DNA of 64,000 nt. It comes from Ignavibacteriota bacterium (GTDB lineage: Bacteria > Bacteroidota > Ignavibacteria > UBA10030 > UBA6906). Under the pieces are notes generated by a model. It ran no database searches. It had not been told where the DNA came from and worked only from the letters and a program-made list of their open reading frames with translations. The translations under genes and the position numbers were made by a program. How positions within the stretch are numbered: the stretch's first letter is position 1; each line of letters opens with the position of its first letter. Positions 20,850 through 50,577 of this stretch are shown here, in pieces. Location of the stretch: positions 184,817 through 248,816 of the forward strand of contig JADJHP010000006.1 in assembly GCA_016707525.1 (NCBI GenBank), given 5' to 3'.

Positions 20850-23612
20850 ATGTCAGTTCGTCGTATGTTCATTGTGCTGGTCGGATGCCTGATCGCCGGT
20901 GTCGCCTTTGGCGGGAACACGGGGAAGATCGCCGGGCGCATTCAGAGTTCGGAGAACGGGGAAACCCTCGTCGGCGTCAGCGTGCTCATCGAAGGCACCT
21001 CCATCGGCGCCAGTACGAATGTGGATGGCGATTTCACCATCATCAACATCCCGCCGGGGACGTACAACGTCGTCGCCTCCGGGGTCGGCTTCCAGAAGAA
21101 GCGCATCACGAATGTGAAGGTCTCGGTGGACTTCACCACCCGGCTGGACATCAAGCTGGGGACCGACGTGATCGCCCTCGAGACCGTGGAAGTGCAGGCC
21201 GAGGCGCCGATGATCCGCCGCGACCTGACATCCTCGCACACGAACATCGACGCGGCAGCGATTCAGGCCTTGCCCGTGGAGAGCGTGACGCAGATCCTCT
21301 CCTTGCAGGCCGGCATCACCCAGGGCGCGGGGGGCGAATTGCATATCCGCGGCGGACGCTCCAACGAGATCGCCTACACGGTGAACGGCGTGTCGATCTC
21401 CAACCCGTTCGACAACACCCGCACCGTGCAGATCGCCACGAATGCCATCCAGGAACTGTCGGTGGTGAGCGGGACGTTTAACGCCGAGTACGGCAATGCC
21501 CTGAGCGGTGTCGTCAATACGGTGACGAAGGAAGGTGGGAACAGCTTCGGCGGCAGCATGTCGTTCTACACGGGCGATTATGTGAGTTCGCACGATGAGG
21601 TCTTCACGAACATCGACAACGTGAAGCCGTTCAGCCATACGGTCACGGAACTCACGCTCAACGGGCCGATCCTCACCGACCAGGTGAGCTTCTTCCTCTC
21701 GGGCCGGTTCGACGACGAGAAGGGGTGGCTCTACGGCGTGCGCCAGCATCTTCCTACGGACTACGCCAGCGTGAACCCGATGAACCCCAATGACATCACG
21801 CTGTTCCGGTCCGGCGACAGCGCCCTCGTGCCCATGAATCCGAGCCGGGAAGTGAGCGGGACCGCGAAACTGACCTTCACGCCGTTCTCCACGGCGAAGA
21901 TCCGCTACGACGTCCTGTATTCGAACTCGTCCTGGAGAGGGTATTCCCACAGCTACAAGTACAATCCGGATGCGAACTACAATAATAATGAGTGGGGCTT
22001 GCTGAACGCCCTCGAACTCCGGCATTCGGTGAATGCCTCCACGTATTACACCCTCCGCGGGTCGTACAATCTGAACGACTACAAGCAGTACCTCTACCCG
22101 CTCCTGGATGCTTCCGGAAGTCCGGTGGTCTACTCTCCGGGGGGAGCACTGGACATCAGCACGCTCCATGCGGACCCGCGGTACCAGCCGGATTACAAGA
22201 GTGTTGCCGTGGCACCCTATACGTTCCTTTCCGGCGGCACGCGCAACGGCCACTATTATCAGCGTTCCGCAACGACGAGCGTGAAGTTCGATGTGACGAG
22301 CCAGATGACGCAGAACCACGAAGTGAAATTCGGGGCGGAGTACAAGACGCATACGCTGAAGTATGAGAGTTTCTCCGTTCTCCGGGATACGGTCCGGTAT
22401 TTCACCCCGACCATCCCATCGACGAATACCTCATATCACGATGCGTACACCCGCAAGCCGAAGGAGATCTCGGCGTACCTCCAGGACAAGATGGAGTTCG
22501 ACAACCTCATCCTGAATGTCGGCCTCCGGTACGACTTCTTCAGTGCCGACGCGGACTACTCCACCGATATGTTCAACCCGAGTCCGAACAGTCCGACGCT
22601 GCCGGCCTCGGTCGACCGCTCGACCCTGCTCGCCAGGTCGAAAGGGAAGCACCAATGGAGCCCGCGTGTGGGTGTGTCGTTCCCGATCACGGATCAGGGG
22701 ATCATCCATTTCTCGTACGGGCATTTCTTCCAGATGCCGCCGTTCTCGTACCTCTACGCGAACCCGGATTTCAAGTACAGCTTCTCCACCGGCACGCCGA
22801 GCTTCGGCAATGCCGACCTGAACCCGCAGCGGACGGTCACGTATGAACTCGGCCTCCAGCAGCAGCTCATGCCGAATCTCTCCTTCAATGTGACCGGGTT
22901 CTACAAGGACGTCCGCGACCTGCTCGCGCAACAGCAGATCCGCATCAGCGGCGACGAGACGTATTACAAGTATGTGAACAAGGATTACAGCAACGTGAAG
23001 GGGCTCACCTTCTCGCTCACCAAACGGCGGGGGGCAGGCGATCTGATCGGCGCGACCCTGGATTATACCTTCCAGGTTTCCGAGGGGAACGAGACCGATG
23101 CCAATGCATTCTTCGTCGATCTCTCGTCCGGACGGCAGAGCGAAAAGGTGCCGGTCTACCTGGATTGGGACCAGACACACACCTTGAATGCCACCGTCTC
23201 CGTCGGTGAACCGAACGACTGGAACGTCACGCTCGTCGGGCGCCTCGGCACCGGGCTTCCGTACACCCCGCAGATCCTGACGCAGACCGTCTATCTGGTC
23301 ACCAACAGCGCGCGGAAGCCCTCGCAGGTCCGCGTGGACCTTCTGGCCGACAAGACCTTCACCGTGGCAGGGCTCCGCTTGACCGCGTTCCTGAAAGTGT
23401 ACAATCTCTTCGACGGTCTGATCGAACGATATGTGTATGACGATACCGGACGGGCGACGTACACGCTCGTGGCCGGACAGGGAACCGCCGAGGCGACGGA
23501 TGCCATCGCCGCGCGTGTGCCGGGTGTTCATCCGGCATCGGAATGGTTCGTGAGGCCCGACTATTATGCACCCCCGAGAGAAATTCGGGTGGGGGTGGAT
23601 GTCGAATTCTAG
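20850..23612 (+). CDS. Cassette A gene 1: CarboxypepD_reg domain + plug + TonB-dependent-receptor-like outer-membrane barrel (Oar/SusC-like)
   Basis: AGGAGG 20839-20844 and a signal peptide. GKIAGRIQSSENGETLVGVSVLIEGT..DGDFTIINIPPGTYNVV (carboxypeptidase-regulatory fold). Plug-like LHIRGGRSNEIAYTVNGVS. About 700-aa barrel ending VGVDVEF. Confidence 0.8.
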   Translation: MSVRRMFIVLVGCLIAGVAFGGNTGKIAGRIQSSENGETLVGVSVLIEGTSIGASTNVDGDFTIINIPPGTYNVVASGVGFQKKRITNVKVSVDFTTRLDIKLGTDVIALETVEVQAEAPMIRRDLTSSHTNIDAAAIQALPVESVTQILSLQAGITQGAGGELHIRGGRSNEIAYTVNGVSISNPFDNTRTVQIATNAIQELSVVSGTFNAEYGNALSGVVNTVTKEGGNSFGGSMSFYTGDYVSSHDEVFTNIDNVKPFSHTVTELTLNGPILTDQVSFFLSGRFDDEKGWLYGVRQHLPTDYASVNPMNPNDITLFRSGDSALVPMNPSREVSGTAKLTFTPFSTAKIRYDVLYSNSSWRGYSHSYKYNPDANYNNNEWGLLNALELRHSVNASTYYTLRGSYNLNDYKQYLYPLLDASGSPVVYSPGGALDISTLHADPRYQPDYKSVAVAPYTFLSGGTRNGHYYQRSATTSVKFDVTSQMTQNHEVKFGAEYKTHTLKYESFSVLRDTVRYFTPTIPSTNTSYHDAYTRKPKEISAYLQDKMEFDNLILNVGLRYDFFSADADYSTDMFNPSPNSPTLPASVDRSTLLARSKGKHQWSPRVGVSFPITDQGIIHFSYGHFFQMPPFSYLYANPDFKYSFSTGTPSFGNADLNPQRTVTYELGLQQQLMPNLSFNVTGFYKDVRDLLAQQQIRISGDETYYKYVNKDYSNVKGLTFSLTKRRGAGDLIGATLDYTFQVSEGNETDANAFFVDLSSGRQSEKVPVYLDWDQTHTLNATVSVGEPNDWNVTLVGRLGTGLPYTPQILTQTVYLVTNSARKPSQVRVDLLADKTFTVAGLRLTAFLKVYNLFDGLIERYVYDDTGRATYTLVAGQGTAEATDAIAARVPGVHPASEWFVRPDYYAPPREIRVGVDVEF

Positions 23613-23699
23613 GTGAGGCGGAAACCGAACGAAGAGTATCCGGAGCGGCGGGTTGTGGCCCGTCGGCGTTCAAAGGAAGCTGATAAAGGAAGAGTGTGC

Positions 23700-26600
23700 A
23701 TGAAGAACATGAGAGTCACTCAATGGATGGTGTGGATGCTCGTGGCCGTGGTGAGCGCGGGTGTGACCGTTGTCCGTGCGGACGATGACGAGCTCGAGAA
23801 GGCACGCCGCGCGGTCAGGGAGTACATACAGGCCAACCCGTATCCGGCCGTGGTGAACGGAGGGGTGCCGGCACCGATGAAGCCTGAAGCGCCTTCGCTT
23901 GCCAAGACCTCCGGCACGATGGCGCAGAAGGACAGGAAATCCTTCTTCATGAACGGCAACCGGATCGCCGTGGAGCTGTACAACTACGGCGGCATTGCCC
24001 CGGGCTATGATGCGTTGCGCGCGGTGAACAACCTCGTCTGGCGCAATCTGGACTACGCATTCCAGTTCTGCCCCATCGTCGGCGCTTCCGTCCCCGATGC
24101 GTGGGTCCCGGGAAGCGCCTCCACATCGTCTCTGACGCCCTCTGGGACTATCCGAACCTGCGGGAAGTGAATCCTACCGGCGACACGCTCTGGCAGTGGC
24201 AGCCCATTCCGGGGTATGCCGATCCGGCACAGAAGTACATGGCCTCCAATCCCGCCGATGACACGAATGGTGACGGGAAGCCGGATAGCTGGCCGCGTAC
24301 GTGGTACAACCCCTCCACCGGCAAGTATGTCTGGCCGGGTTTCCTGTCGCAGGATGTGATGAGTTCGGACCTCGAAGTGTTCTGGGCAATGGACGATCGG
24401 TTCAACACCGAGTTCCAGTACTTCCCGTTCCTGGCGGACTCTGCGCGGAAGGGGATCGGTGTGCAGGTGGATGGGCGCGCATTCCAGTGGAGCAACGCTC
24501 TCGCAGAGAACACGATCTTTTTCGTGTACACGGTCACGAACACCAGCGATAAGCATCTGGACAGCGTGTACTTCGGCATCTACGGCGATCCGGACCTGGG
24601 CGGAGGTGCGCCCGAGAACACGGATGACAACGGGTATTTCGTTCCCCCGTACGATACCACGGGGCGTCTGGACGGGGTGCCGATCTATTCGCGCAGCATG
24701 GTGTACTTCTGGGACCCGGACATGAAGGGTGCCCGCGGGCTTCCGCTGGGGTTCGTCGGGTGCAAATATCTCGAGAGTCCGGGCAATCCGGTGAACACGA
24801 TCGATGACGATGGCGACGGGGTCATCGACGAACGGCAGGACGACGGGATCGATAACGATCACGACTGGAGCATCCTCGAAGACGACATCGGCATCGATGG
24901 CGTGCCGAACACGCAGGATCAGGGTGAAGGGAACGGTGTCCCCGATGCCGGCCGGCGCCTTGTGGACGGGACGCAGGACCCGCTCTATCCGGGTGAACCG
25001 AACTTCGAACTCACCGATCTCGACGAGTCGGACCAGATCGGCCTGACGAGCTTCAACAGCTGGTCGTGGAACACTGACCGCATCTCCAACGATGAATCGA
25101 TGTGGAACCGGTCCATTCCCCGGAACTTCGGTGCCATCCAGCAGAATTCCGACATCGTATACATCTTCGCATCCGGCTACATCACGCTGGACCGTGCCGA
25201 GACGAAACGCATTTCCATGGCCCTGCTCCTCGCCGAGAACCTCGACGGGCTGCTGACCACGGCGAAGACCGTGCAGACCATCTACAATAAGAACTACCAG
25301 TTCTTCCGTCCGCCCGTTACCCCGCACATGACGGCGGTGCCGGACGACAGGAAGGTGACGCTGTACTGGGATACCGCCGCGGAAGAGAGTGTCGACCCGA
25401 TCACCGGGAAGGACTTCGAAGGGTACGTGATCTACAGGAGCACCGATCCCGCATTCGGCGATATCCAGACGGTCACCGATGGCAAAGGGGCGAAATTCCT
25501 CTCGACGCCGTTGCAGGATGTGACGGGGGCAGAAGCGAAGTGGGACGTTGCCACACGCTCGGAGCCGTTCACCGATCTCAATTTCAACGGGAAGTTCGAC
25601 ACGGGCGAACCGTTCGTGGATTGGAATCACGATGGCCGGTATACCGAGAACGGCGAGGACCGCTGGAAGGGGTATTCTCCTGTGCCGTACCAGGACCGTG
25701 GATTGCAGTATTTCCTGGGCAACAACCGCGGGCTCGTGCACTCGTTCGTGGATTCGAACAACGTGATCAATGGCCAGACCTACTACTACGCCGTCGTGGC
25801 GTACGACCATGGCGATTCCGTCGGCATCCCGCCCACGGAGACCACGAAGAAGATCACCGTGGACCCGATCACATCGAAATTCAAGTACGATGTGAATACG
25901 GCACAGGTGGTGCCCGGTCCGCGGACGAGCGGCTATATCGCGCCGTCCCTCGCCTCGCGCAACATCAGCCATACGGGCGGTATCGGGACGGGCCCGGTGA
26001 CGCTGCGGATGATGAACGATCTCGTGATCCGCAATGCCGGAGAGTACACGGTGAGCTTCGCCGATTCTTTCTTCAATGGCGCGAGGAACATTCCGGGGAA
26101 GAATTATTCCGTGCTGGACGCGAAGCCGGTCACGGAGACGTTCGCACCCTTCGATACCAACTTCACGACGCTGGGGCACACGGCGATCGCGGATGACGGA
26201 TCGTTGCGGGTGACCGGCGCGAACGGGACGGTGTACACCCGCGGCGTGGACTATCTGGTGAACTTCCAGCGGGGTTCGATCCGCCGGACCGCAGCGAGCA
26301 CGATGCCTGCGAACGCCACGTACACCATCACGTACCGGTACTACCCGGTGTATCAGAGCCGCGCCATCAAGGCCGAGGATTCCAATCCTGTCTTCGACGG
26401 CGTTGCGCTCAAACTGGAGGACCATCCCGAGTTGCGCTACGACTCCATACGCTCGCGGTGGGTGGAAGGGACATGCAACTACACGTTCCTCGCCAAGACG
26501 GCGTCCGTCGGCTCCCGGAAGCGCCTCTGGCCGGCCGACTACGAGATCCGTTTCTCCTCCACGCCGATCGATACGGCACTCACGCTGGGGACGGGCGTGA

Positions 26601-27253
26601 TCCGCATCCCGGTGAAATATTCCGTCATGGACGTCACCACAGGAACGCCGCAGCGGATACTCACCTTCCTCGCGGAGAACAGCTCAACGAAGGATCAGCA
26701 GTGGAGCTCCGGTGAAGAGATCGTGCTCTTCAGGCCCGGGTCCACCGGGCTGACCACCGATACGACGACCTGGGGTATCGTGATCACGAAGCCGGCGGAT
26801 ACCACGATCGCTCCCCGCGCACCCGGGAATGGCGACGTGCTGTTGATCGCGACCCGGCGTCCGTTCTCGACGAGCGACCGTTTCACGATCACGACCGAAG
26901 GCTCAACCGTAAGCACGGAGCGCGCGTCCTCCCTCATGGACCAGATCTATGTCGTCCCCAATCCGTACGTCGGGCTGAGCGATATCGAACCGACCAACCG
27001 GCTTCCGGGCGCGACGCGGGGTGAGCGGCGGATCTACTTCGAGCACCTTCCCTCGCAATGCACGATCCGCATCTTCACGATCAACGGCGACCTCGTGCAG
27101 ACCCTGAACCATGATGCGGGTGTGCAGAACGGGCGGGAGTACTGGAACCTCCTGAACCGGGATGGGTTCAGCGTCTCCTACGGCGTCTACATCGCGCATA
27201 TCGATGCGCCGGGTGTGGGAGAGAAGATCCTGAAGTTCGCCCTCATTAAATAG
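23700..27253 (+). pseudogene. Cassette A gene 2: large secreted protein with variant CTD-like tail, interrupted by a -1 frame shift (or assembly error)
   Basis: ATG 23700 (AAGGAAG upstream) and signal MKNMRVTQWMVWMLVAVVSAGVTVVRA. The N-terminal 135 aa are in frame 3 and the rest (24101-27253) in frame 2. The intact paralog at 32808-36311 is collinear across the junction. The locus is 3554 nt, one short of a multiple of 3. Confidence 0.65.
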
Positions 27254-27348
27254 GCGATGAGGGAAGAAGGAAGGCACAGTGTAGGTCGGGATACGAAACC
27301 ACAAGAATCGTGCATGTTGAGGTGTTTCTTGACAGTGGAGAGACAGCA

Positions 27349-28374
27349 ATGAGACTTTCGAAGACCATACGGTTGGCATCGTTTGTGGTGATGATCGTCG
27401 CCGGCGTGGCGACGGCACCGGCACAGAACCTGACCAAGACCGGGACCACGGCGGCGCCGTTCCTCAAGATCGGCGTCGGCTCGCGTGCCATCGGGATGGG
27501 CGGTGCGTTCGCGGCCACGGCCGATGACATCACCGCGATCTACTGGAACCCCGGCGGACTCGCGAAGATGTACTCCAGCGAGGCGACGTTCAACCACGTC
27601 CGGTGGCTTGCCGATGTGAATCTTGATTTTGCGGCATTCGCGACGCACATCCCCGGGCTGGGAACGATCGGTGCGTTCGTGAGCGTGGAGTCCATGGATG
27701 AGATGGAAGTGCGGACCACCGCACAACCGGAAGGGACCGGTGAGTTGTTCTCGGCGGGCGCGATGGCGATCGGTATCACCTTTGCGCGGGACCTCACCGA
27801 CCAGTTCTCGATCGGGTTCAACGCCAAGTATGTCAACGAACATCTCTGGAACATGTCGGCGAGCGGCGTCGCCATCGACATCGGGACCATCTACCGTATC
27901 CCGATCCTGAACGAATTCCGGCTGGCCGCGAGCATCTCCAACTTCGGGACGAAGATGAAGCTGGAGGGGCGCGACAATCTGAAGATCGCCCAGGTGGGCG
28001 GGGGCGAGGGGAATCTGATCAATACCGACGTCCAGCTCGATGCTTTCGACCTTCCGCTCATCTTCCGCGTGGGTGTTGCGGCCGATGTGGTGAAGGACGG
28101 AGAGCACCGGGTGACGGCGGCTGTGGATGCCGTGCACCCCAACGACAACACGGAATACCTGAACACCGGCATGGAATATGCCTGGAACGAGATCGTGTTC
28201 ATCCGGGGCGGATGGAAGTCGCTGTTCGAACGAGAGACGGAGCAGCACTTCACCGCCGGACTCGGGCTGCACTACCGCATCGTGGGGGAGTTCAAGTTCA
28301 TGGTGGACTATGCGTACCAGGACTGGGGCCGCCTGAAGAACGTGCATTACCTGACATTCGGACTGCGATTCTGA
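27349..28374 (+). CDS. Cassette A gene 3: PorV/PorQ-like (UPF0164/FadL-fold-like) outer-membrane beta-barrel
   Basis: GGAGAG 27337-27342. Signal MRLSKTIRLASFVVMIVAGVATAPAQ. Motif TTAAPFLKIGVGSRAIGMGGAFAATADDITAIYWNPGGLA. Alternating beta pattern; ends GLRF. Confidence 0.6.
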   Translation: MRLSKTIRLASFVVMIVAGVATAPAQNLTKTGTTAAPFLKIGVGSRAIGMGGAFAATADDITAIYWNPGGLAKMYSSEATFNHVRWLADVNLDFAAFATHIPGLGTIGAFVSVESMDEMEVRTTAQPEGTGELFSAGAMAIGITFARDLTDQFSIGFNAKYVNEHLWNMSASGVAIDIGTIYRIPILNEFRLAASISNFGTKMKLEGRDNLKIAQVGGGEGNLINTDVQLDAFDLPLIFRVGVAADVVKDGEHRVTAAVDAVHPNDNTEYLNTGMEYAWNEIVFIRGGWKSLFERETEQHFTAGLGLHYRIVGEFKFMVDYAYQDWGRLKNVHYLTFGLRF

Positions 28375-28386
28375 TCGGTACTATGC

Positions 28387-28439: not shown

Positions 28440-28455
28440 AGACCGGAGGTGTGTG

Positions 28456-29073
28456 ATGAGACCGTTGCTGTGCGCATTGTGCCTGCTATTCCTCCTTCCC
28501 GCGTCGCTCCACTCCCAATCCTCTGATGCCGAGCTCGTCAATGTGAAAGAGCTCATCCCGGACATCGTGCTCGATCTGAAATATAGCACGGTGGTCAACT
28601 TCACCGCGCAGAAGCTGTACACCACCAATGAATGCCTGCTGGCCCGTGGCATGGTGAACCGCCTTGCCATGGTGCAAGACAGCCTGCGGAAAAGGGGATT
28701 GGGGCTGAAGATCTTTGATGGGTACCGTCCGCGCGCGGTCCAATACCTGATGTTCGAGATCTATCCCGACCCGACCTTCGTTGCCGATCCGGCCACGGGG
28801 TCGAAACATAACCGCGGGGCGGCGGTGGATCTGACGCTGGTCAACCTTGCCACGGGTCAGGAGTTGGTCATGCCGACGGGGTTCGACGATTTCTCCGACG
28901 CGGCTGCCCACGGGTGGACCATTGGCATGTCGGCCGAACAGATCGCGAACCGGGAACTCCTCCTCACCATGATGGTGAATGTGGGCGGCTTGACGAGTCT
29001 CGCATCGGAATGGTGGCACTACGAACACGGGCCATCGCTGACGAATCCACTCTTTGATTTCCAGATGAAATGA
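28456..29073 (+). CDS. VanX/DdpX-type D-alanyl-D-alanine dipeptidase (peptidase M15D) with signal peptide
   Basis: GGAGG 28445-28449. Signal MRPLLCALCLLFLLPASLHSQ. Motifs GYRPRAVQ, SKHNRGAAVDLTL (SxHxxGxAxD) and EWWHYE. Confidence 0.8.
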   Translation: MRPLLCALCLLFLLPASLHSQSSDAELVNVKELIPDIVLDLKYSTVVNFTAQKLYTTNECLLARGMVNRLAMVQDSLRKRGLGLKIFDGYRPRAVQYLMFEIYPDPTFVADPATGSKHNRGAAVDLTLVNLATGQELVMPTGFDDFSDAAAHGWTIGMSAEQIANRELLLTMMVNVGGLTSLASEWWHYEHGPSLTNPLFDFQMK

Positions 29074-29089
29074 CGGGCGGGGTCCAGCC

Positions 29090-41109: not shown

Positions 41110-41332
41110 AGTTTCGGCCCCTACGATCTTGATGGGGCGCGAAGGGGGCCTGACCCCGGCGATGCGAATATACGTGGTGTAGGTACATCGTGGTGGTCTC
41201 GTCAGGGCCTCGCAGTGGCCGGGATTGCCCGGCCACGACACGTGTTTCTTGGGAACACTCCGGCAGTATCCCTTCCGCCAGTTGACATTCTCTCCAGCAT
41301 TCCTGTCCTTGAGAAAAAGGGATGCCCTGCCG

Positions 41333-43846
41333 ATGCGATGGTTCCGCGTTCTTCTTCTCACGATCCTTCTCCCCCTGCTCCTGTCGACCGGCGCGCACGC
41401 TGACGACCCCCCGCGGGAGACCAGCGTCCATGCTTCGTTCATGCAGATATACCGTAGCGCCTCGCTCGCCGCGCTCACGCCTGCACCACAGGGGTATGTC
41501 ATTCAGCCGCTGAACCGCACGGCCCGGACGACGCGCCTCACGCGCGAGGTCTTCGGATATCTTCCGTATTGGTTCATCAGCCGCTGGACACAGGTGGATC
41601 TCCAGCTCGTGAGCACGATCGCGTATTTCAGCGGCGAGATCGCCGCGGATGGGTCCATCGGCGACACCCACGGCTGGCCGAAAACGCCCGGCGATCCCAC
41701 GGCATCGGCACAGGTGGTGAATATGATCAATGCAGCGCATGCAGCCGGCGTGAAGGTGGTGCTCTGCTTCACGAATTTCACCGGATCGGAGATCGATGCC
41801 ATCGTCAGCACCCCGGCATACCGCACGGCGTTCATCCAGCAGTCGATGGCCATCGTGAAGGCAGGGAACGGCGATGGGATCAACATCAATTTCGAGGGGA
41901 TCAACAGCGCGAGCAAGGCAGCCCTGACGCAGTTCATGATCGCGCTTGCCGACAGCTTCCATGCGAACATTCCCGGGAGTCAGGTCTCGTGTGCGCCGAC
42001 CGATTTCGATACCCGGGCAGGGGACTGGGACCTCGCCGCCTTGAACCCGAAACTCGATCTCTTCTTCTTCCAGGGGTATGGGTACGGTTGGAGCGGGGGA
42101 TCGGTGGCGGCACCGGTAGGCCTCCTCCCGAATACGGCGTTCTGGGGAAGCCTCAACAGCACCACCCTCATAACCTATGCGCTCGCGCGCATCTCTCCCG
42201 CGAAGGTTGTCCTCGGCGTGCCGCACTATGGCTACCGCTGGCCCACGGTGTCGGGCGACCCGCGGGCGGCGACGATGGGGTCGGGCGTGGTCATTTATTA
42301 CCCCGATGCCCTGGGCTTCATCGGCAGCTACGGACGGCATTGGGACCAGGCAGCGCAGAACCCCTGGTTCCGGTATCAGGCCGGTGCGCAATGGTACCAG
42401 GGGTGGTATGACGACGCCGAGAGCATGAGCTACAAGTACCAGTTCGTGCTGGACCGGAACCTGATGGGGATCGGTATGTGGGCGTTGGGGATGGATGCGG
42501 GGAACAAAGATATCTGGAACATGCTGGCGGTGTACCTGACTGATTCCGGTTATGTGCCCCGCGCGCCCTCGGCTCCTGTCCTCGCCGCCGTGAAGGATAC
42601 CTCAGAGCAGTTCGACAATCGCGTCGTCGTCCGGTGGCGTTCGTCCGGCACCCCCGCGGCAGCCGGGTTCCGGCTGTACATGACGCACGATCCTGCAGCG
42701 TGGCCCACGACACCTCTCCTGGATGAATCGGTCCTGGGTCCGGTGCAGCGTGAAACGGTGATCAGCGGTCTTGCCGCCGACACGACGTACTTCGTGCGCA
42801 TGGTGGCCGTGGACAGTCTGCATGTGCGCATCAGCGATACCTCGGACACGTACGCGGTGCGGGTGGGAGGCGGGAAGCCGTATCTCATCGTGGACGGCTT
42901 CGACCGTGTGACGGGGAGCTACAATCTTCCGCGTCACGATTTCGGCGCGCGGTACGGCCAGGCGCTTGCCGCGTCGGGCGCCCACTTCGACTGCGTGGAC
43001 AACGAGGCCGTGCAGCAGGGGATGGTACACCCCGGGAACTATGCAGGCGTTCTCTGGTTCCTGGGTGACGAGTCCACCGCCGATCTCTCGCTGAACACGA
43101 TCGAGCAGAGCGTGCTGCAGTCGTACCTGAAGGGCGGCGGGCGGCTGTTCATTACTGGCTCCGAACTCGGATACGATCTCGGCCGGAGTGCATCGCCCAA
43201 TTATGCGCCGGCGTTCTATGCGGACTACATGAAGGCCGTCTATGGAGGCGACAAGGCTTCCACGAGCAGCTATACCGGTGCCGCCGGGTCGGCCTTTGCC
43301 GGCATCAGCGGGACTTTTGGTAGTGTGTATCCGGAAGACTATCCCGACTACATCACCCCGGCAGGTGGCGCGAAGAGCGCGCTGACGTATTCTGCGTCGC
43401 AGGTTGCGGCCGTGCAGTACGAGGGGGCGTTCGGGGGTGGGAGCATCGCCGGCCGGCTGGTGTATGTGGCGTTCGCCGTCGAGACCATGGGCTCTGCCGC
43501 TGAGCGGGCTACGCTGATCGGACGCGTCGTCGCGTTCTTCAGCGGGGCGACAGGCATCGCGGACGAGGAAGTGTCGCATCCGGACACGTGGTCACTGGAG
43601 CAGAATTTCCCAAATCCGTTCAATCCCACGACGACCATCGGGTTCTCGATGGCGCGCCAGGGGTTCGCATCGTTGAAGGTGTTCGACCTGCTCGGCCGCG
43701 AGGTCATGACGCTGGTCAGCGAAGAGAAGGCGGCAGGTTCCTATCGCGCCACGTTCGATGCAAGCACCCTCACCAGCGGCACCTACTTCTATGTGCTGCG
43801 CGCAGGGTCCTTCACGGCGACCCGGTCAATGGTATTGGTGAAGTAA
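41333..43846 (+). CDS. GH18-like glycoside hydrolase domain protein with Fn3-like region, unknown C-terminal domain and T9SS CTD
   Basis: Signal MRWFRVLLLTILLPLLLSTGAHA. GH18 features FGYLPYW and GDGININFEG (variant DxxDxDxE box). CTD LEQNFPNPFNPTTTIGF... Confidence 0.7.
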   Translation: MRWFRVLLLTILLPLLLSTGAHADDPPRETSVHASFMQIYRSASLAALTPAPQGYVIQPLNRTARTTRLTREVFGYLPYWFISRWTQVDLQLVSTIAYFSGEIAADGSIGDTHGWPKTPGDPTASAQVVNMINAAHAAGVKVVLCFTNFTGSEIDAIVSTPAYRTAFIQQSMAIVKAGNGDGININFEGINSASKAALTQFMIALADSFHANIPGSQVSCAPTDFDTRAGDWDLAALNPKLDLFFFQGYGYGWSGGSVAAPVGLLPNTAFWGSLNSTTLITYALARISPAKVVLGVPHYGYRWPTVSGDPRAATMGSGVVIYYPDALGFIGSYGRHWDQAAQNPWFRYQAGAQWYQGWYDDAESMSYKYQFVLDRNLMGIGMWALGMDAGNKDIWNMLAVYLTDSGYVPRAPSAPVLAAVKDTSEQFDNRVVVRWRSSGTPAAAGFRLYMTHDPAAWPTTPLLDESVLGPVQRETVISGLAADTTYFVRMVAVDSLHVRISDTSDTYAVRVGGGKPYLIVDGFDRVTGSYNLPRHDFGARYGQALAASGAHFDCVDNEAVQQGMVHPGNYAGVLWFLGDESTADLSLNTIEQSVLQSYLKGGGRLFITGSELGYDLGRSASPNYAPAFYADYMKAVYGGDKASTSSYTGAAGSAFAGISGTFGSVYPEDYPDYITPAGGAKSALTYSASQVAAVQYEGAFGGGSIAGRLVYVAFAVETMGSAAERATLIGRVVAFFSGATGIADEEVSHPDTWSLEQNFPNPFNPTTTIGFSMARQGFASLKVFDLLGREVMTLVSEEKAAGSYRATFDASTLTSGTYFYVLRAGSFTATRSMVLVK
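43661..43846 (+). repeat. Copy 2 of the duplicated 186-nt CTD-coding segment
   Basis: See 40827-41012. Confidence 0.8.
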
Positions 43847-43916: not shown

Positions 43917-43940
43917 AGGGGCCGAGCATGCTCGGCCCCT
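43917..43940. repeat. GC-rich palindromic REP-like element (perfect 24-bp palindrome)
   Basis: AGGGGCCGAGCATGCTCGGCCCCT has the same core as 41082-41109 and the same distance (about 83 nt) from the preceding stop codon. Confidence 0.8.
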
Positions 43941-44102: not shown

Positions 44103-44131
44103 TTGACACTTCATTTGTTGTTCAGTATATT
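44103..44131 (+). promoter_or_regulatory. Near-consensus sigma70-type promoter for cassette C
   Basis: TTGACA (44103-44108), 17 nt, TATATT (44126-44131), in an AT-rich island. The leader to ATG 44260 is about 120 nt. Confidence 0.6.
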
Positions 44132-44259: not shown

Positions 44260-47200
44260 ATGAGAGTGACCTTTACTCTTTTCAGTGCTGCCCTGGTTCT
44301 TTTCACTTCGATCGCATTCGCCGGAACGACAGGAAAGGTCGCCGGCGTCGTACGTGACGCGCAGAGCGGTGAGCCGCTCCCGAACGTCAACGTGGTCGTT
44401 GAGGGAACCATGTTGGGTGCAGCAACCAATCCTGACGGCTACTATGCCATCCTGAACATCCCCCCGGGCCGGTACAAGGTCATCGCCAAACTCATTGGCT
44501 ACACCTCCGGCGCCGCCGTCAATGTTCGCGTCGACATCGACCAGACAACCGAGCTGAATCTTCAGCTGAGTCAGGAAACGATCTCCGGCGAAGAGGTGAC
44601 GATCGTGGCCCAGCGTCCGGTGGTCCAGAAGGATGTCGCGGCGAGCCGTGCGAACATCGAATTCCAGGACATCGAGAAGCTCCCTGTCACCAGTGTTTCA
44701 AGTGTGGTGACCCTGCAGGCTGGTATTCAGGGGGGACTCATTATCCGTGGCAGTGCCAGCGACCAGGCCGCGTTCGTTGTTGATGGTATGCTGATGCGCG
44801 ATGAAAGAACGAACACCCCGTTCACCGGGATCAGCCTGAGTTCAATTCAGGATGTTCAAGTTCAAACCGGCGGGTTCAATGCTGAATATGGCAACCTGCG
44901 CTCGGGTGTCGTGAACGTTGTCACGCGTGAGGGCAGCCCGTCATCCTACAGCTTCAACTTCATCGGCCGGTATAGCCCTGCCGGGCCGAAGCACTTCGGG
45001 CCGTCGATCTATGATGCGAACTCGTACTGGATCCGTCCTTATCTGGATGATGCGGTGGCGTGGAATGGGACGAGCACGTGGGACCAGTGGACGCAGGCGC
45101 AGTACCCTGAGTTTGAAGGGTGGAACGCTGTGGCCGCGCGTCTCCTGAAGGATGCCGATCCGACGAACGACCTTTCCCCTGAAGCCGCCCAGCGTCTGTT
45201 CCTTTGGGAGCATCGCCGTCAGGCCGAGATCAAGGACCCCGACTGGGATGTGGATATGGGCTTCGGTGGCCCGGTCCCGTTCATCTCCGAGCAACTGGGG
45301 AACCTCCGCTTCTTCGCTTCGTACCGGCAGCAGTCCACGCAGTATCTGGTGCCGCTCTCCCGCAACGGCTACAGCGACCTCAGCGGCCAGTTGAAGATCA
45401 CGTCGGACGTCGGCCCGGGCATGAAGCTCATGTTCTCCGGCCTCGTTGCGAAGCAGGAAGGCACGAACAGCAACAACACCGGCGATCCGGGGATGTTCAC
45501 CACCGTGTCAGGCGTTGCCTCGTCACTCTATAATACTTCCACAGCGGGCTACATTGATGCCCGTATCTTCGGCACGGACTACTGGGCCCCGACCACAACG
45601 AACATCAGCATGTTCGGTGCGAAGTTCTCGCATGCGCTGAGTGGCTCCACGTTCTATGAGGCAGCGGTCCAGCGCTTCGCGCAGGGGACCGATACCGATC
45701 CGGGTGCGTTGCGCGACACCGAAAGGAAGTATCTTTTCGGGAACAACTATTATGTGGATGAAGCACCCTTCGGGTTCCAGCCGTATCCGAGCACCGGTAT
45801 CGTCGGGCTCCGCATGGGTGTCGGCATGAGCAACTCCCGCGACACGTCGCGGGTGGAGACATGGACCGCGCGGTTCGACCTGACCACGCAGATCGACAAG
45901 TTCAATCAGGTCAAGGCTGGCGTGGAATTCGCGTACACGGACAACTGGGTGCGGGCCCGCAACGTCGACATCACGCTGCCAAGCGGGCGATACAACACGA
46001 GCTGGCACAATTATCCGATCCGTGGCGCGTTGTATCTCCAGGACAAGCTCGAGTTCGAGGGGATGATCGCGAACTTCGGCCTCCGGTTCGAGTACCTCAA
46101 TCCGAACGGGAGCTGGTACGAGTACGCGAACGATCCCTACAACAATGCATTCTCCGGCCAGGCGCTGCTCGATACGGCATTGGTGCCCACGACCGCGCCG
46201 GCAACGTTGACCGTCAGTCCGCGACTGGCCGTTGCCTTCCCGATCAGCGACGACGCCAAGCTGTTCTTCAACTACGGGCATTTCCGTCAGGTCCCGGATC
46301 CGCGCAACCTGTTCCTTCTGCGCAGGTATTCGGACAACAATCAGGTGACCGCGATGGCGGACCCCACGGCCGACTTCCCGAAGACCGTGGCGTATGAGCT
46401 CGGCTACGAGCACAGCCTGATGGAGGAGTACCTCGTGAGGGTGTCCGCGTACTACAAGGACGTCACGAACGAGACCAAGACCGTGAGTTACTACGGCCGG
46501 AACTCGGGTGTTCTGTACAGCAAATACACGAGCAACCAGTACCGGGACATCCGTGGTTTCGAGGTCCAGGTGAACAAGAACCGCGGCAACTGGGTCCAGG
46601 GCTTCATCAATTATACGTACGACGTGCGCACGACGGGATACTTCGGCCTCGGGCGGTATTACGAGGACCCGAACGAGCAGCGTGCCTATATCCGGACGAA
46701 TGTGTACCAGGAAAAGCCGCTCCCGCGTCCGTATGCCCGCGTCAACCTCGACTTCTTCACGCCGTCCGACTTCGGGCCGGCGCTTGTCGGGCAGAACCTG
46801 CTGGGCGACTGGCGTCTGAATTTCATCGGGACGTGGTCGGCCGGTGCGTACGACACCTGGGCCGGCGGCGGCACGATCTCCGAATTGCAGTACAACGTCA
46901 AATGGCGTGACTACTGGAATCTGGACATGCGCCTCAGCAAGAACTTCAAGTTCGGACGTGCCAACATCCAGTTGTTCGCTGACATGTCGAACCTCCTGAA
47001 CTTCCGGTACTTCAGCGGGGACAACGGGTTCTTCGGGACGCGCGACTATGACAACTATATGAAGTCGCTGCATCTGCCGGACTTCGCGCCGCAGTTCAAG
47101 ACCGCGATCGGCTACGTCAACGTTCCCGGCGACGACCAGCCGGGCGATTACCGCAAGGACGGTGTGCCGTATCAGCCTATCGTCGGCCTGGCGCAGATGA

Positions 47201-47427
47201 CCGATCTCGATCTCCCCTCGAACCAGCATGCGCGGCCGTTCTACTATGTCGTGGCAACGGGCGAGTATTACCAGTTCGTGAACGGTGTCCGCCAGGTGGT
47301 GGACCCCGGTAAGCTGCAGCAGGTGATGGACGACAAGGCATACATCGATATGCCGAACCAGGAAGCTTTCACGTTCCTCAATCCCCGGAACATCTTCTAC
47401 GGCATCCGGTTCTCGTTCGATCTCTGA
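44260..47427 (+). CDS. Cassette C gene 1: CarboxypepD_reg + plug + TonB-dependent-receptor-like barrel
   Basis: AGGAG 44250-44254. Signal MRVTFTLFSAALVLFTSIAFAG. GKVAGVVRDAQSGEPLPNVNVVVEGT..DGYYAILNIPPGRYKVI. Plug-like LIIRGSASDQAAFVVDGM. Ends GIRFSFDL. Confidence 0.8.
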   Translation: MRVTFTLFSAALVLFTSIAFAGTTGKVAGVVRDAQSGEPLPNVNVVVEGTMLGAATNPDGYYAILNIPPGRYKVIAKLIGYTSGAAVNVRVDIDQTTELNLQLSQETISGEEVTIVAQRPVVQKDVAASRANIEFQDIEKLPVTSVSSVVTLQAGIQGGLIIRGSASDQAAFVVDGMLMRDERTNTPFTGISLSSIQDVQVQTGGFNAEYGNLRSGVVNVVTREGSPSSYSFNFIGRYSPAGPKHFGPSIYDANSYWIRPYLDDAVAWNGTSTWDQWTQAQYPEFEGWNAVAARLLKDADPTNDLSPEAAQRLFLWEHRRQAEIKDPDWDVDMGFGGPVPFISEQLGNLRFFASYRQQSTQYLVPLSRNGYSDLSGQLKITSDVGPGMKLMFSGLVAKQEGTNSNNTGDPGMFTTVSGVASSLYNTSTAGYIDARIFGTDYWAPTTTNISMFGAKFSHALSGSTFYEAAVQRFAQGTDTDPGALRDTERKYLFGNNYYVDEAPFGFQPYPSTGIVGLRMGVGMSNSRDTSRVETWTARFDLTTQIDKFNQVKAGVEFAYTDNWVRARNVDITLPSGRYNTSWHNYPIRGALYLQDKLEFEGMIANFGLRFEYLNPNGSWYEYANDPYNNAFSGQALLDTALVPTTAPATLTVSPRLAVAFPISDDAKLFFNYGHFRQVPDPRNLFLLRRYSDNNQVTAMADPTADFPKTVAYELGYEHSLMEEYLVRVSAYYKDVTNETKTVSYYGRNSGVLYSKYTSNQYRDIRGFEVQVNKNRGNWVQGFINYTYDVRTTGYFGLGRYYEDPNEQRAYIRTNVYQEKPLPRPYARVNLDFFTPSDFGPALVGQNLLGDWRLNFIGTWSAGAYDTWAGGGTISELQYNVKWRDYWNLDMRLSKNFKFGRANIQLFADMSNLLNFRYFSGDNGFFGTRDYDNYMKSLHLPDFAPQFKTAIGYVNVPGDDQPGDYRKDGVPYQPIVGLAQMTDLDLPSNQHARPFYYVVATGEYYQFVNGVRQVVDPGKLQQVMDDKAYIDMPNQEAFTFLNPRNIFYGIRFSFDL

Positions 47428-47479
47428 TCACACAGGACGTCTGTCGCACGACACAAGCGTATCTCACGGCGAGGAAGCA

Positions 47480-49543
47480 ATGAAGAACATAGGCGTAGTT
47501 GTCCTCATCACACTGTTCCTTCTCGGCCTGGCACCGCAGGCGGCCCGGGCGCAGGGGTATGAGACCCAATGGATCTCGATCGGTTCGCTCCAGAACTGGT
47601 ATGCGAACATGGGGGCCGAGATCGAGGAGGGACGTGTCAAGAAACAGCAGGATGGACTCCAGTGGGAGGCCATCTATGCGAACCAGGACATGCAGGCGGC
47701 AAAAGGGTTGTGGATCGGAGCGATGAATTTCCGCGACCCGGACGGCACCGTGTATCCCCACAAGGTGATCGGCGTCGGTCCGCGTTACGACGGCAAGAAT
47801 GTCTTCACCCCCACGCTGTTCGAGTTGGTCGCGAAGATGGAAGCCCCCTCGGTGACCGTGGACGGGGTGAGCACGACCGGGCGGCTTGTGGACATCAAGC
47901 GTATCGATCCGACGATCCCCGGCGAGCGCATGATCGTCAATGAGCTGACGACCGCGCTCGGGCTCAAGATGACACGCAAGATCTACGCGTTCAGCCAGCA
48001 GTACCATGACAATTACATCATCAGCGACTATCGTTTCACGAACACCTCGAGCGTGCGGCTGGATTCGGTGATGTTCTACTTCCAGTACCGTCTGGCCGTC
48101 TGTGCGACGACGCGGTACGTCATCGGCAATGCGACGGGGTGGGGCATCAACACGATGCTTGATGTGCGCGGTGATGGCCTCAAGGCCGACGTGGACGATG
48201 CGGTGAACGTGCCGGGCGTGTATACCGCGCCGCACATGCGGCTCCAGTATGTCTGGCACGGCAAGTATCCGTCGTTCACGCAGTATGACAATCTCGGCGG
48301 CCCGATCTGGTCGCCTGCCTCGGTCGCGAACTACGGCGATCCGGCCGATTCGGTTGGTCGCCTGGGTGCCGCGCAATTCGTCGGTATCGGCACGATCCAT
48401 GCGGACCGGTCCGCGGCGGACAGCACCGATGATCCGGCGCAACCGTCGACGACATCCTATGAAGGGTCGGACGAGGCCTTTGCCTCCGCCGATGCCGACA
48501 TGTACAATGCGGCGCGCATGACGGCGAAGTACACGACGTGGATGCGCCGCGGCCATCGCGCCCCGCGCCATGCGGATGTCGTGGAGCCGACCGGCACCTT
48601 CAATGATCCCAAGGGCGATCCGGCGCTCGGGACGCCGGGCGGATTCTCGAATGCCAACGGGTATGGCCCGTACACGATCAACCCCGGCGAGGATGTCCAT
48701 ATTGTCATGGTCGAAGCAGTGGGAGCCCTGAGCCGCGAAAAGCAGATCTCGGTGGGGCGGAAGTTCAAAGCGGCGACGATCACCGCGAAAGCGAAGAACG
48801 ACTCGGTGCTGACCGGGAAGGATTCGCTCTTCCAGACCATGCGCCGCGCGATCGCGAACTACAAATCGGGCTTTGCGTTGCCGCCCGCGCCGCTTCCGCC
48901 GAAGATCCTCACGGTCACGTCGGCCGGCGACAAGATCGGGCTCACATGGGACACGTACAGCACACCTGATCCCGCCCTCGCAGGGTTCCGCGTCTATCGC
49001 TCACTTGGCAAGACGGACGGTGAGTACACGATGCTGGCGCAGGTTCCGAAGACCGCACGCTCCTTCGACGATACCACCGCTCTCCGCGGCCGTGCATACT
49101 ACTATTACGTCGTCTCCGTCGGTGATCCGGCGTTGAACACCGGTCAGGCACTCACGCCCGCCGGCGTCCCGCTCATGAGCAGCCGCTATCATACGCAGAC
49201 CTACGAGCCGGCCTATCTGAAACGCGCCCCCGGCCTGGCGATGAGTGAGATCCGGATCGTGCCGAACCCGTACAGCGTCTCGGCGCCGTTGAAAACCCTC
49301 CGCTTCGATGGCGAGGGGGACAAGATAGCGTTCTTCAACATCCCGGGACAGTGCCGGATCCGTATCTTCACCGAGCTGGGCGAGCTCATCAAGGAGATCG
49401 AGCATCTGGACGGCAGCGGCGATGCCTACTGGAACTCCGTCACCTCTTCGAATCAGGTGATCGTCAGCGGCATCTATATCGTGGTCTTTGAGAACTTGCA
49501 GACGGGCGAGCGCATCATCAAGAAACTCTCCGTCATCCGTTAA
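47480..49543 (+). CDS. Cassette C gene 2: 687-aa secreted protein, shorter divergent paralog of the cassette A/B large proteins, with variant CTD-like tail
   Basis: GAGGAAG 47471-47477. Signal MKNIGVVVLITLFLLGLAPQAARAQ. Shared blocks IISDYRFTNTSSVRLDSVMFYFQY and KIGLTWDT..GFRVYRS..RAYYYYVVSVGD. Tail IRIVPNPY..CRIRIFTELGELI..GIYIVVF..KLSVIR. Confidence 0.75.
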   Translation: MKNIGVVVLITLFLLGLAPQAARAQGYETQWISIGSLQNWYANMGAEIEEGRVKKQQDGLQWEAIYANQDMQAAKGLWIGAMNFRDPDGTVYPHKVIGVGPRYDGKNVFTPTLFELVAKMEAPSVTVDGVSTTGRLVDIKRIDPTIPGERMIVNELTTALGLKMTRKIYAFSQQYHDNYIISDYRFTNTSSVRLDSVMFYFQYRLAVCATTRYVIGNATGWGINTMLDVRGDGLKADVDDAVNVPGVYTAPHMRLQYVWHGKYPSFTQYDNLGGPIWSPASVANYGDPADSVGRLGAAQFVGIGTIHADRSAADSTDDPAQPSTTSYEGSDEAFASADADMYNAARMTAKYTTWMRRGHRAPRHADVVEPTGTFNDPKGDPALGTPGGFSNANGYGPYTINPGEDVHIVMVEAVGALSREKQISVGRKFKAATITAKAKNDSVLTGKDSLFQTMRRAIANYKSGFALPPAPLPPKILTVTSAGDKIGLTWDTYSTPDPALAGFRVYRSLGKTDGEYTMLAQVPKTARSFDDTTALRGRAYYYYVVSVGDPALNTGQALTPAGVPLMSSRYHTQTYEPAYLKRAPGLAMSEIRIVPNPYSVSAPLKTLRFDGEGDKIAFFNIPGQCRIRIFTELGELIKEIEHLDGSGDAYWNSVTSSNQVIVSGIYIVVFENLQTGERIIKKLSVIR

Positions 49544-50577
49544 TGAACGAGCATCGGGGCCTTTCCATGAGAACACAACGTGGTGTCGTGAGCTTCATCG
49601 CTCTGCTGTGCGTTCTGACGGCGATCGACGCTCCTGCGCAGCAGAAACTCGCGCAGACCGGTATGAAATTCCTGAATGTCCTGCCCGATGCCCGGGCCGC
49701 GGCCCTGGGCGAAGCGATGACATCGCTCGAAGGGCCGGCGTCATCCCTCTTCTTCAATACCGCATCGATGGGCCGGATGACCGGGCTGTCAAGCATGTTC
49801 GTCAGCCACACACAGTGGATCGCGGACATCAAGCATATGTATGCGGCCGCGGCGTTCAGCCCCTTCGATGGCGAGTACGGCGTGATCGGATTCAACTTCC
49901 AGGCGGTCGATTACGGGGTCTTCGAAGAAACGATCCTATGGAACAACGATGCGGGGTATCTCGACCTCGGCACGTTCAAGCCGTCGGCGATCATGGTCGG
50001 CATCGGCTATGCACGTGCGCTGAACGACAAGTTCTCCGTCGGCGGGAACGTGAAGTATGTGCGGCAATCGCTGGGCGATGGCACGAACGCTCTTGCTGCC
50101 AATGGCGACCCGGTGAAGGTATCCAATACGACCAGCGTCTTCGCCTTCGACTTCGGGATCCTGTACAAGACCGGGTTCAAGAGCCTGAACTTCGGCATGG
50201 CGATCCGCAATTTCGCGAAGGAGGTCATGTATCAGAAGGAAGGCTTCCAGTTGCCCTTGACCTTCAGGGTCGGCGTCTCGATGAACGCGCTCGACTTGAC
50301 GGATGCTGATCCCACGATGCACAAGTTCCTGATGGCGGTGGATGCCGAACATCCGCGCGACTTCGCGGAGCAGGTGCGGCTGGGCGGGGAGTATGTGTTC
50401 ATGGATATCCTCTCCCTGCGGGGAGGGTATGTTTCGGGCGGCGATGAGTATGGGATGAGCTACGGCGTCGGGCTGAAGAAGGACTTCGACGGCTTTGGGT
50501 TGAGCCTGGACTATGCGCGCACGCCGTTCGGGGTCTTCGGAGCCGTCAACCGGTTCTCGTTCCAGTTCTCTCTCTAA
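49543..50577 (+). CDS. Cassette C gene 3: divergent PorV/PorQ-like outer-membrane beta-barrel
   Basis: ATG 49543 overlaps the upstream TAA (TAATG); ATG 49567 (MRTQRGVVSFIALLCVLTAIDAPAQQ) is the alternative start. Motifs GMKFLNVLPDARAAALGEAMT, LPLTFRVGVS and DAEHPRD are collinear with the A and B barrels. Ends FQFSL. Confidence 0.55.
   Translation: MNEHRGLSMRTQRGVVSFIALLCVLTAIDAPAQQKLAQTGMKFLNVLPDARAAALGEAMTSLEGPASSLFFNTASMGRMTGLSSMFVSHTQWIADIKHMYAAAAFSPFDGEYGVIGFNFQAVDYGVFEETILWNNDAGYLDLGTFKPSAIMVGIGYARALNDKFSVGGNVKYVRQSLGDGTNALAANGDPVKVSNTTSVFAFDFGILYKTGFKSLNFGMAIRNFAKEVMYQKEGFQLPLTFRVGVSMNALDLTDADPTMHKFLMAVDAEHPRDFAEQVRLGGEYVFMDILSLRGGYVSGGDEYGMSYGVGLKKDFDGFGLSLDYARTPFGVFGAVNRFSFQFSL

Follow-up and report, generated by a model that had tools for sequence, protein, structure and literature searches.

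TonB-dependent transporters with surface partners (SusCD, BtuBG, and TbpAB) are central to Gram-negative feeding, and to our knowledge the well-studied surface partners of these transporters are all lipoproteins. Can such a transporter be served by a surface partner of another kind? The question is raised by a stretch of 64,000 nucleotides (nt), here called the window, from an Ignavibacteriota bacterium (contig JADJHP010000006.1, positions 184,817 to 248,816; G+C ~61%). The window encodes three triads, A, B, and C. In each of them a gene for a TonB-dependent transporter (gene 1) is followed by a gene for a large secreted protein (gene 2) and a gene for a barrel of the PorV/PorQ family (gene 3). 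The reading that we favor, at a little under an even chance, is that gene 2 is exported by the T9SS (type IX secretion system), held by its C-terminal domain (the tail) on its cognate barrel, and serves as a SusD/BtuG-like capture partner of the transporter.

Layout, neighbors, and conservation of the triads

Listing and translation of the open reading frames (ORFs) placed the three triads in identical gene order at 20850-28374 (triad A, plus strand), 39228-31676 (triad B, minus strand), and 44260-50577 (triad C, plus strand), essentially as an earlier sequence-only reading of this DNA had described them. The gaps between genes within the triads are at most 95 nt, and a search for terminator-like hairpins within the triads found no strong one in any of the three. 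A sigma-70-like promoter match lies just 5' of every gene 1, and strong terminator hairpins end the preceding genes ahead of A1 and C1. Upstream of A1 are a strong terminator at 20767-20799 and a promoter-like site at 20758-20785; upstream of B1 is a promoter-like TTGACT-17-TATATT (39381-39353, minus strand); and upstream of C1 are a terminator at 43917-43940 and a promoter-like site at 44103-44131 with 11/12 matches. A common regulatory motif was sought upstream of the three gene-1 copies, and only generic sigma-70-like TTGAC/TATATT promoters were found. Scans of the window for RNA genes found no riboswitch, no other Rfam family, and no tRNA gene, and thereby gave no clue to a substrate. The best explanation of this layout is that each triad would be an operon for an outer-membrane uptake module.

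Conservation was surveyed separately for the two types of triad. For the C type, the full C2 alignment was the query and 80 species-representative genome loci of at least 576 matches were analyzed; for the A/B type, 80 metagenome loci were analyzed. The transporter gene was directly upstream of gene 2 in 75/75 testable C-type and 61/63 testable A/B-type loci, and a PorV-like gene was directly downstream in 75/78 and 61/61, respectively. Pooled, the upstream order was kept at 136 of 138 testable sites and the downstream order at 136 of 139. One of the two A/B exceptions was inspected (L150), and there an AAA-ATPase gene (4370-5929) lies between an intact transporter gene and gene 2. The outer flanks vary from locus to locus, and divergent gene-2 members (1490 and 1589 amino acids (aa)) are likewise found in triads, partly in tandem. 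The sequence-only reading had named the retention of these neighbors around gene-2 homologs elsewhere as the test that could refute its idea, and both neighbors were almost always kept. The triad is a strongly conserved unit and not a local coincidence. Among the C-type genomes, those of Ignavibacteriota include the cultured Ignavibacterium album and Stygiobacter electus as well as Melioribacteraceae; the others belong to Calditrichota, KSB1, and Kryptoniota, apart from one Zixibacteria contig. The triad is present in hundreds of Ignavibacteria-like species. Tandem triad arrays were observed in L167 (3329-16473), L169 (1-11831), and L004 (4721-18076), and gene-2 superfamily members of 1490-1589 aa contain BNR- or Reg_prop-like propeller inserts.

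By its domain matches, gene 1 is a TonB-dependent transporter of Oar/SusC-like architecture (CarboxypepD_reg, plug, and barrel). Pfam identified an N-terminal CarboxypepD_reg, Plug, and TonB_dep_Rec_b-barrel in A1 (20850-23612, plus strand, 920 aa), CarboxypepD_reg, Plug, TonB_dep_Rec_b-barrel, and OMP_b-brl_4 in B1 (36340-39228, minus strand, 962 aa), and CarboxypepD_reg and Plug in the divergent C1 (44260-47427, plus strand, 1055 aa). The Plug E values were 1.5e-11, 2.4e-10, and 3.3e-8 for A1, B1, and C1. The sequence-only reading had assigned a carboxypeptidase-regulatory-like domain, a plug-like segment, and a barrel to every copy. This stands for CarboxypepD_reg and Plug, and it stands for the barrel of A1 (E 8e-34) and B1 (E 4e-30) by the Pfam model, but the barrel of C1 is visible solely through weak NCBIfam TonB-receptor matches. 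The motifs that had been quoted for gene 1 are present in the translations with one deviation, since B1 has PPGKVKV and not PPG.Y.V. Between CarboxypepD_reg and the plug are the stretches LETVEVQAE (A1), LDAVVIQAE (B1), and EEVTIVAQ (C1), candidates for a TonB box in that by eye they resemble that of SusC-like proteins.

Gene 3 had been assigned to the PorV/PorQ family, and A3 (27349-28374, plus strand, 341 aa), B3 (31676-32731, minus strand, 351 aa), and C3 (49543-50577, plus strand, 344 aa) all pass the family model NF033709 with 224, 217, and 196 bits (cut-off 90) over model positions 1-326. A3 also matches Pfam PorV (E 1.4e-10), the motifs quoted for gene 3 are present in the translations, and the sole match of B3 in a phmmer search of the PDB is Flavobacterium johnsoniae PorV (6h3i_F, E 1.8e-11). 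None of the equivalog cut-offs is reached: the scores are 80-83 bits for PorV (NF033710, cut-off 250), 85-94 for PorQ (NF033711, cut-off 220), and 33-107 for PorV2 (NF052325, cut-off 325). The PorP/SprF family is absent from the NCBIfam results for gene 3 at E up to 0.01. On these scores gene 3 is in the PorV/PorQ family, yet it is not PorV, PorQ, or PorV2.

The large secreted protein and its tail

Gene 2 has a Sec signal peptide and no lipobox. B2 (32808-36311, minus strand, 1167 aa) contains the signal peptide, a beta-supersandwich with Asp-rich loops, FN3, beta-sandwich domains, and a special C-terminal domain; C2 (47480-49543, plus strand, 687 aa) contains a beta-supersandwich, FN3, and the special C-terminal domain. 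A2, an all-beta secreted protein of ~1183 aa once repaired, is located at 23700-27253 (plus strand) as had been claimed, but it does not form one ORF. It is split in two, 23613-24170 and 24101-27253, by a 1-nt frameshift near 24100; the frame changes at 24095-24110 inside GGGTCCCGGG, where one base is missing. An intact 1223-aa ortholog (L001, on a related 3.75-Mb contig) is collinear across the break. Two further genes in the window are split alike. An FG-GAP/T9SS gene is divided into 18589-20502 and 20286-20729; in locus L002, one unbroken gene encodes an FG-GAP protein that ends in a T9SS tail. A TIG gene is divided into 50604-51311 and 51205-51819, and locus L007, which is 91% identical, has it in one piece (407 aa). 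Since these genes are split in the same way, an indel-prone (long-read) assembly is likelier than a pseudogene, and the A2 frameshift is probably an assembly indel.

In BLASTP, triads A and B share 39% identity in gene 1 and 36% in gene 2, both over the full length, and 50% in gene 3. C1 aligns to A1 and B1 in two pieces with 25-40% identity, and C3 to A3 and B3 with 27-30%, which agrees with the estimate by eye that gene 3 is roughly half identical between A and B and more diverged in C. By these alignments A and B are full-length paralogs and C is much more distant. The same holds for gene 2, whose three copies had been described as collinear paralogs with shared blocks (VYNYG, SWP.TWYN, ESDQIGLTSF, and others). 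The blocks are present in A2 and B2 and absent from C2, and the description is right for A2 and B2, but C2 is a remote, shorter relative. In BLASTP and a first hhalign comparison, only the last ~100 aa were common to C2 and A2/B2 (tail E 8e-16 against the B2 family in hhalign). Homology of C2 in the tail alone was overturned by hhalign with the tail masked and by fold comparison. The masked alignment of C2 with the B2 family gave two weak collinear matches, one at 90% probability (E 2e-6) and one at 70% (E 4e-5), and the folds of the B2 and C2 models agree, so C2 is a remote, shorter member of the same superfamily. A2 and B2 exceed C2 by additional Asp-rich loops and by ~350 residues in beta-sandwich domains, the latter located between FN3 and the tail.

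No part of the superfamily is better conserved than the tail, which has 32-37% identity between C2 and B2; BLAST found nothing else in common between them. A hidden Markov model (HMM) of the tail matched A2 at 26930-27250 (plus strand, E 2e-31), B2 at 32811-33134 (minus strand, E 2e-43), and C2 at 49217-49540 (plus strand, E 7e-44); its best E value on other ORFs of the window was 5e-6. Over 166 loci, strong matches of this HMM were nearly all on ORFs of 600-899 or 1000-1299 aa. Ordinary T9SS type-A tails are recognized at 23 bits by TIGR04183 and at 27 bits by PF18962. The tails of A2, B2, and C2 scored 13.0, 14.4, and 15.8 bits with TIGR04183 and stay below the type-A model, whereas two control tails, taken from ordinary cargo encoded in the window, scored 34.6 and 39.7 bits. 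PF18962 did not match the three tails even at E 10, and no type-B (TIGR04131-type) match was among the NCBIfam results for them at E up to 10. They are still type-A-like in fold and motifs, with a PNPY start, a C-terminal basic residue, and an alignment to PorZ. Among named proteins, PorZ and PorU have the tails that match best: the PorZ tail for A2 (E 2.5e-5) and C2 (E 7.5e-6), and the PorU and PorZ tails for B2. A PDB search with the B2 family profile matched the PorZ tail (5m11) only, at E 0.53. By these comparisons the gene-2 tail is a distinct class of T9SS-like C-terminal domain.

The tail profile was also searched against 1.84 billion representatives, and at least 3393 clusters (50% identity) matched at E 1e-10 or better. 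Among the top 150 tail representatives, all those longer than ~470 aa belong to the B2-like/C2-like superfamily, except two FlgD_ig-repeat subtilases with a partial tail match, and the remaining ones are short fragments. Thus, the tail is a hallmark of the superfamily. A promiscuous module on unrelated proteins was ruled out by the superfamily membership of the long matches.

Could gene 2 leave the cell without the T9SS? The window encodes at least eight ordinary Por_Secre_tail (T9SS type-A) proteins, an unusually dense set (14415-15791, 15892-18756, 18589-20729, 29090-31420, 39558-41012, 41225-43846, 51816-53309, and 53483-55861), and thus the T9SS is in use. The set includes a GH18, a GHL10, and a DUF5689/FlgD_ig protein. 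One option in the sequence-only reading was that gene 1 exports gene 2 in the manner of Oar; in Myxococcus, Oar has been proposed to secrete the protease PopC. Gene 1 does have the Oar-like CarboxypepD_reg, Plug, and barrel, and B1 matches OMP_b-brl_4. However, gene 2 has its own Sec signal peptide and T9SS-type tail and adjoins a PorV-family barrel in a window full of T9SS cargo, which makes export through gene 1 unnecessary. Oar-style export is therefore the least likely of the explanations and highly improbable.

The sequence-only reading had not named the C-terminal domain of gene 2, but it had suggested that the barrel encoded beside gene 2, PorV-like, either displays this protein or receives it. 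Because gene 2 has a T9SS-like C-terminal domain, this is the most economical reading of the sequences. What becomes of the tail after handover separates our preferred reading from another one, in which gene 3 is a dedicated carrier only, that is, a substrate-specific T9SS shuttle (SprF/PorP-like). The tail would then be cleaved, gene 2 would be released or attached to lipopolysaccharide, and gene 1 would be merely co-regulated, importing what gene 2 liberates or binds. Cognate barrels adjoining cargo genes are an established T9SS theme (PMC10202324), and the distinct tail class is tied to adjacency with a PorV-like gene. However, the gene-2 tail is closer to the tails of PorZ and PorU, which are retained and bound to PorQ and PorV, respectively (PMC10202324), than to cleaved type-A tails. 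Moreover, gene 2 has no recognizable enzyme domain, and the TonB-dependent transporter beside the pair in 136 of 138 testable cases is left unexplained. We regard a carrier-only role as unlikely, although it deserves some weight.

Gene 2 matched no family in Pfam, NCBIfam, or PDB sequences, where only the PorZ/PorU tails were matched; a 'tail tube' match was spurious, being below its cut-off. B2 has at least 958 homologs, and every one is unannotated. AlphaFold2 models of B2 (mean predicted local distance difference test 78.7) and C2 (mean 87.4, predicted template modeling (TM) score 0.85) are all-beta. In Foldseek, the N-terminal 450-550 residues of both matched the non-catalytic beta-supersandwich N-domains of GH94 phosphorylases, and further matches were the GH116 N-domain and the YidC P1 domain for B2 and the dextran dextrinase N-domain for C2. 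The remainder of both matched FN3 arrays and, at low coverage, PorZ. None of these matches extends into a catalytic domain, and the models suggest that the folds of gene 2 are of binding or scaffold types. PorU identity of A2 and B2, which have a similar size and a porU-porV-like gene order, was rejected: they have no peptidase domain, they do not match NF033707 over its full length, and the top Foldseek matches do not include PorU. With the models of PorU (NF033707, cut-off 420) and PorZ (NF052228, cut-off 260), only the last 50-75 residues of gene 2 matched, at 13-25 bits.

It might be argued that gene 2 is an unrecognized T9SS-secreted enzyme, cleaving glycans or peptides, with gene 1 importing the products and gene 3 as carrier or anchor. 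The B2 family does keep many invariant Asp, Glu, and His residues, as in GDPHVGG and ESDQIGLTSF, and the supersandwich fold occurs in GH94, GH116, and GH15-type enzymes. However, the B2-invariant motifs are not kept in C2, the structural matches are to non-catalytic N-terminal domains and none reaches the catalytic (alpha/alpha)6 domain, and, in line with the earlier statement that gene 2 lacks a catalytic motif, there is no HExxH and no shared GxSxG. A cryptic enzyme is thus very unlikely in our view.

Proposed role and genomic context

The sequences establish the domain content, the family memberships, the distinct tail class, and the conservation of the operon. From these we infer, as follows, that the T9SS exports gene 2, that gene 3 retains it by the tail, that it works together with the transporter, and what the substrate is. 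Sec would bring gene 2 to the periplasm, and the T9SS would move it across the outer membrane with the C-terminal domain as export signal. The tail would stay uncleaved and docked on the cognate gene-3 barrel, a surface tether like that of PorZ by PorQ and PorU by PorV. The tethered beta-supersandwich/FN3 ectodomain could then capture substrate or present it to the neighboring gene-1 transporter, a role comparable to that of SusD, surface glycan-binding proteins, BtuG, and TbpB, except that a T9SS tail and its barrel would stand in for the lipid anchor. By extension, the whole superfamily (at least 3393 clusters) might capture substrates outside the cell as a subunit of the TonB-dependent transporters that Ignavibacteriota, Calditrichota, KSB1, and related groups possess; this wider proposal is possible, but we hold it more loosely and would not expect it to prove right in full.

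Some clues to the substrate of the C type come from its neighbors. A gene for a TIG-domain protein (Pfam TIG; 50604-51819, plus strand) lies just after the C-type triad and is downstream in 44/48 loci. It is followed by ordinary T9SS type-A cargo (51816-53309, plus strand; Por_Secre_tail E 8e-11), which has a downstream homolog in 42/48 loci; the ortholog in L005 has faint NHL and SBBP matches. The next gene encodes a GHL10-family glycosidase with an ordinary T9SS tail (53483-55861, plus strand; Pfam GHL10 E 5e-67 and Por_Secre_tail). The GHL10 catalytic region is encoded downstream on the same strand in 28/48 C-type loci, and anywhere in 28/40 loci of at least 18 kb. Genes for an NlpC/P60 protein with SH3 domains and an MR_MLE (L-Ala-D/L-Glu epimerase-like) protein follow at 55858-58279 (plus strand; Pfam), and such genes are near C-type triads in 12-13 of 48 loci and also in L006. 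NamZ is encoded at a C-type locus in a KSB1 genome. GHL10 is the family of the peptidoglycan lytic transglycosylase Cwp19 (PMC6016235), and it also includes a starch-active enzyme (PMC9967864). A reasonable but soft guess is that the C-type substrate is peptidoglycan, a muropeptide, or a related cell-wall-type glycan; it would probably be a cell-wall-type glycan or muropeptide freed by the co-encoded secreted enzymes.

The muropeptide-type run after triad C extends over 55858-63603 (plus strand), where the NlpC/P60-SH3 and MR_MLE epimerase genes are followed by genes for a 400-aa protein of no known family, a beta-lactamase/DD-peptidase-like protein, and a protein of 789 aa that shows a weak NagB-like match. 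In the Melioribacteraceae locus L005, genes for a Y_Y_Y/HisKA_3 sensor kinase and a GerE-type response regulator, resembling regulators of a polysaccharide utilization locus (PUL), lie directly upstream of a C-type triad (428-4259).

The neighbors of the A/B type are different. Of 80 neighboring ORFs at A/B-type loci, 19 were HhH-GPD, 13 the FG-GAP T9SS protein, 10 PGM_PMM (GlmM-like), and 6 FtsW/RodA, and no catabolic enzymes were among the neighbor families counted, so no substrate is proposed for A and B. Thus, the idea of a PUL analog in the sequence-only reading fits the C-type locus, with its secreted GHL10, NlpC/P60, and epimerase, but not the A/B type with its housekeeping neighbors. 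These conserved neighbors would suit a housekeeping role in which the triad builds a constitutive structure at the cell surface, be it an adhesin, a coat like an S-layer, or a complex associated with the T9SS or the envelope, and in which gene 1 is an anchor or energized partner and not a nutrient importer. The FN3/Ig-like beta domains and the Asp-rich, calcium-binding-type loops predicted in the gene-2 models are also as in adhesins and S-layer proteins. However, several diverged triads per genome, tandem arrays included, and the link of the C type to secreted hydrolases and muropeptide-catabolism genes are reminiscent of substrate-specific uptake loci. We therefore think a housekeeping structure quite unlikely.

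Several points weigh against the tethered capture partner that we prefer. With E values of 7e-6 to 1e-2, the PorZ and PorU tails are weak matches, and the gene-3 copies might be general carriers of the lineage and not dedicated barrels. The supersandwich matches span only part of the models, with query TM-scores of 0.14-0.26, and do not prove ligand binding. Because GHL10 members are also starch-active, the substrate proposed for the C type is soft, and the housekeeping neighbors of the A/B triads are as compatible with a constitutive role in the envelope as with the uptake of nutrients.

Between triads A and B there are genes for a D-Ala-D-Ala dipeptidase (Peptidase_M15; 28453-29073, plus strand) and T9SS cargo, which may extend the A operon; the same placement is found in the syntenic L001 (17084-17704). 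Toward the left side of the window, a gene for a PBP1C-like transglycosylase/transpeptidase (4466-6874, plus strand) is followed by one for a 1864-aa bacterial alpha-2-macroglobulin (6891-12482, plus strand), and the two are the pbpC-A2M pair known from other bacteria. At the left edge lies part of a gene for a Met-zincin (DUF4953/DUF5117; 1-1731, plus strand).

If the wider proposal for the superfamily is right, there would be a third architecture for outer-membrane nutrient capture, independent of lipoproteins and SusD, and the docking principle of PorZ-PorQ would reach beyond the secretion machine into ordinary physiology. If the preferred reading is right, a function would be assigned to a very large family of hypothetical proteins, and retained-tail docking on PorV-like barrels would be a general anchoring device, no longer peculiar to the T9SS attachment complex. 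The triad would also open a way to study how Ignavibacteria, Calditrichota, and KSB1 take up polymers, among them possibly peptidoglycan or necromass; the triad-bearing phyla are environmentally abundant and little studied.

Comparison with known systems

The sequence-only reading did not recognize the triad as a described system. We found no published account of it in the literature on PorV and the T9SS, TonB-dependent transporters, and Ignavibacteria/Melioribacter, coverage of which was incomplete and is not proof of absence; no description of an obligate three-gene unit, of the gene-2 superfamily, or of the specialized tail was located there. Melioribacter roseus has SusCDE (PMC3534657), and the triad is thus an additional system and not a lineage-wide replacement of SusD.

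The triad resembles SusC/SusD (RagA/RagB), BtuB-BtuG, and TbpA-TbpB in that a transporter gene lies beside that of a proposed surface partner, and the transporter has a CarboxypepD_reg-type N-terminal extension. As in SusCD-type loci, there are multiple diverged copies per genome, and C-type triads lie among genes for secreted hydrolases and, in one genome, beside those for a sensor kinase and a response regulator. Identity with a SusC/SusD PUL was rejected. Gene 1 scores 61 (A1), 71 (B1), and 60 (C1) bits with the SusC/RagA model TIGR04056 (cut-off 368), and there is no adjacent SusD/RagB-family lipoprotein gene; since both defining features of such a PUL are lacking, the locus is not one. 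The absence of SusD noted earlier is borne out, as no SusD-family match was found in the triad genes or the scanned neighboring ORFs. Unlike SusD, gene 2 is not SusD-like, not a lipoprotein, and not helical, and its anchoring is proposed to be by the T9SS tail and the barrel, not by lipid.

Gene 1 shares the domain architecture of Myxococcus xanthus Oar, a CarboxypepD_reg TonB-dependent transporter. We know of no report of Oar with a T9SS-tailed neighbor or a PorV-like barrel.

SprB-SprF of F. johnsoniae, with a type-B C-terminal domain on the cargo, is similar in that the cargo gene lies beside the gene for its own PorV-like barrel, and the cognate PorP/SprF barrel is thought to carry or anchor its specific type-B cargo (PMC10202324). 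Unlike SprB, gene 2 has a tail that is related to type A and not type B, and no Bac_Flav_CTERM or PorP/SprF is among the NCBIfam matches. The SprB-SprF pair has no TonB-dependent transporter, whereas the triad does.

In PorZ-PorQ and PorU-PorV, which belong to the T9SS attachment complex of Porphyromonas gingivalis, a large secreted protein keeps its C-terminal domain and docks on a barrel of the PorV/PorQ family (PMC10202324). The triad is like these systems in that the gene-2 tail best matches the PorZ/PorU tails and gene 3 is in the PorV/PorQ family. It differs in that gene 2 is not PorU or PorZ: it has no C25-like peptidase domain, and NF033707 and NF052228 are matched in the tail only, far below their cut-offs. 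It also differs in that gene 3 falls short of the PorV and PorQ equivalog cut-offs, and in that triads occur several per genome and are always paired with a TonB-dependent transporter, while the attachment complex has none. The porU and porV genes are adjacent in P. gingivalis and F. johnsoniae, with the large tail-bearing protein first and then the barrel, as in the triad. The parts of the triad are of known kinds, namely a TonB-dependent transporter, a PorV/PorQ-family barrel, and a T9SS-like tail, and for the docking there are precedents in PorZ-PorQ, PorU-PorV, and SprB-SprF.

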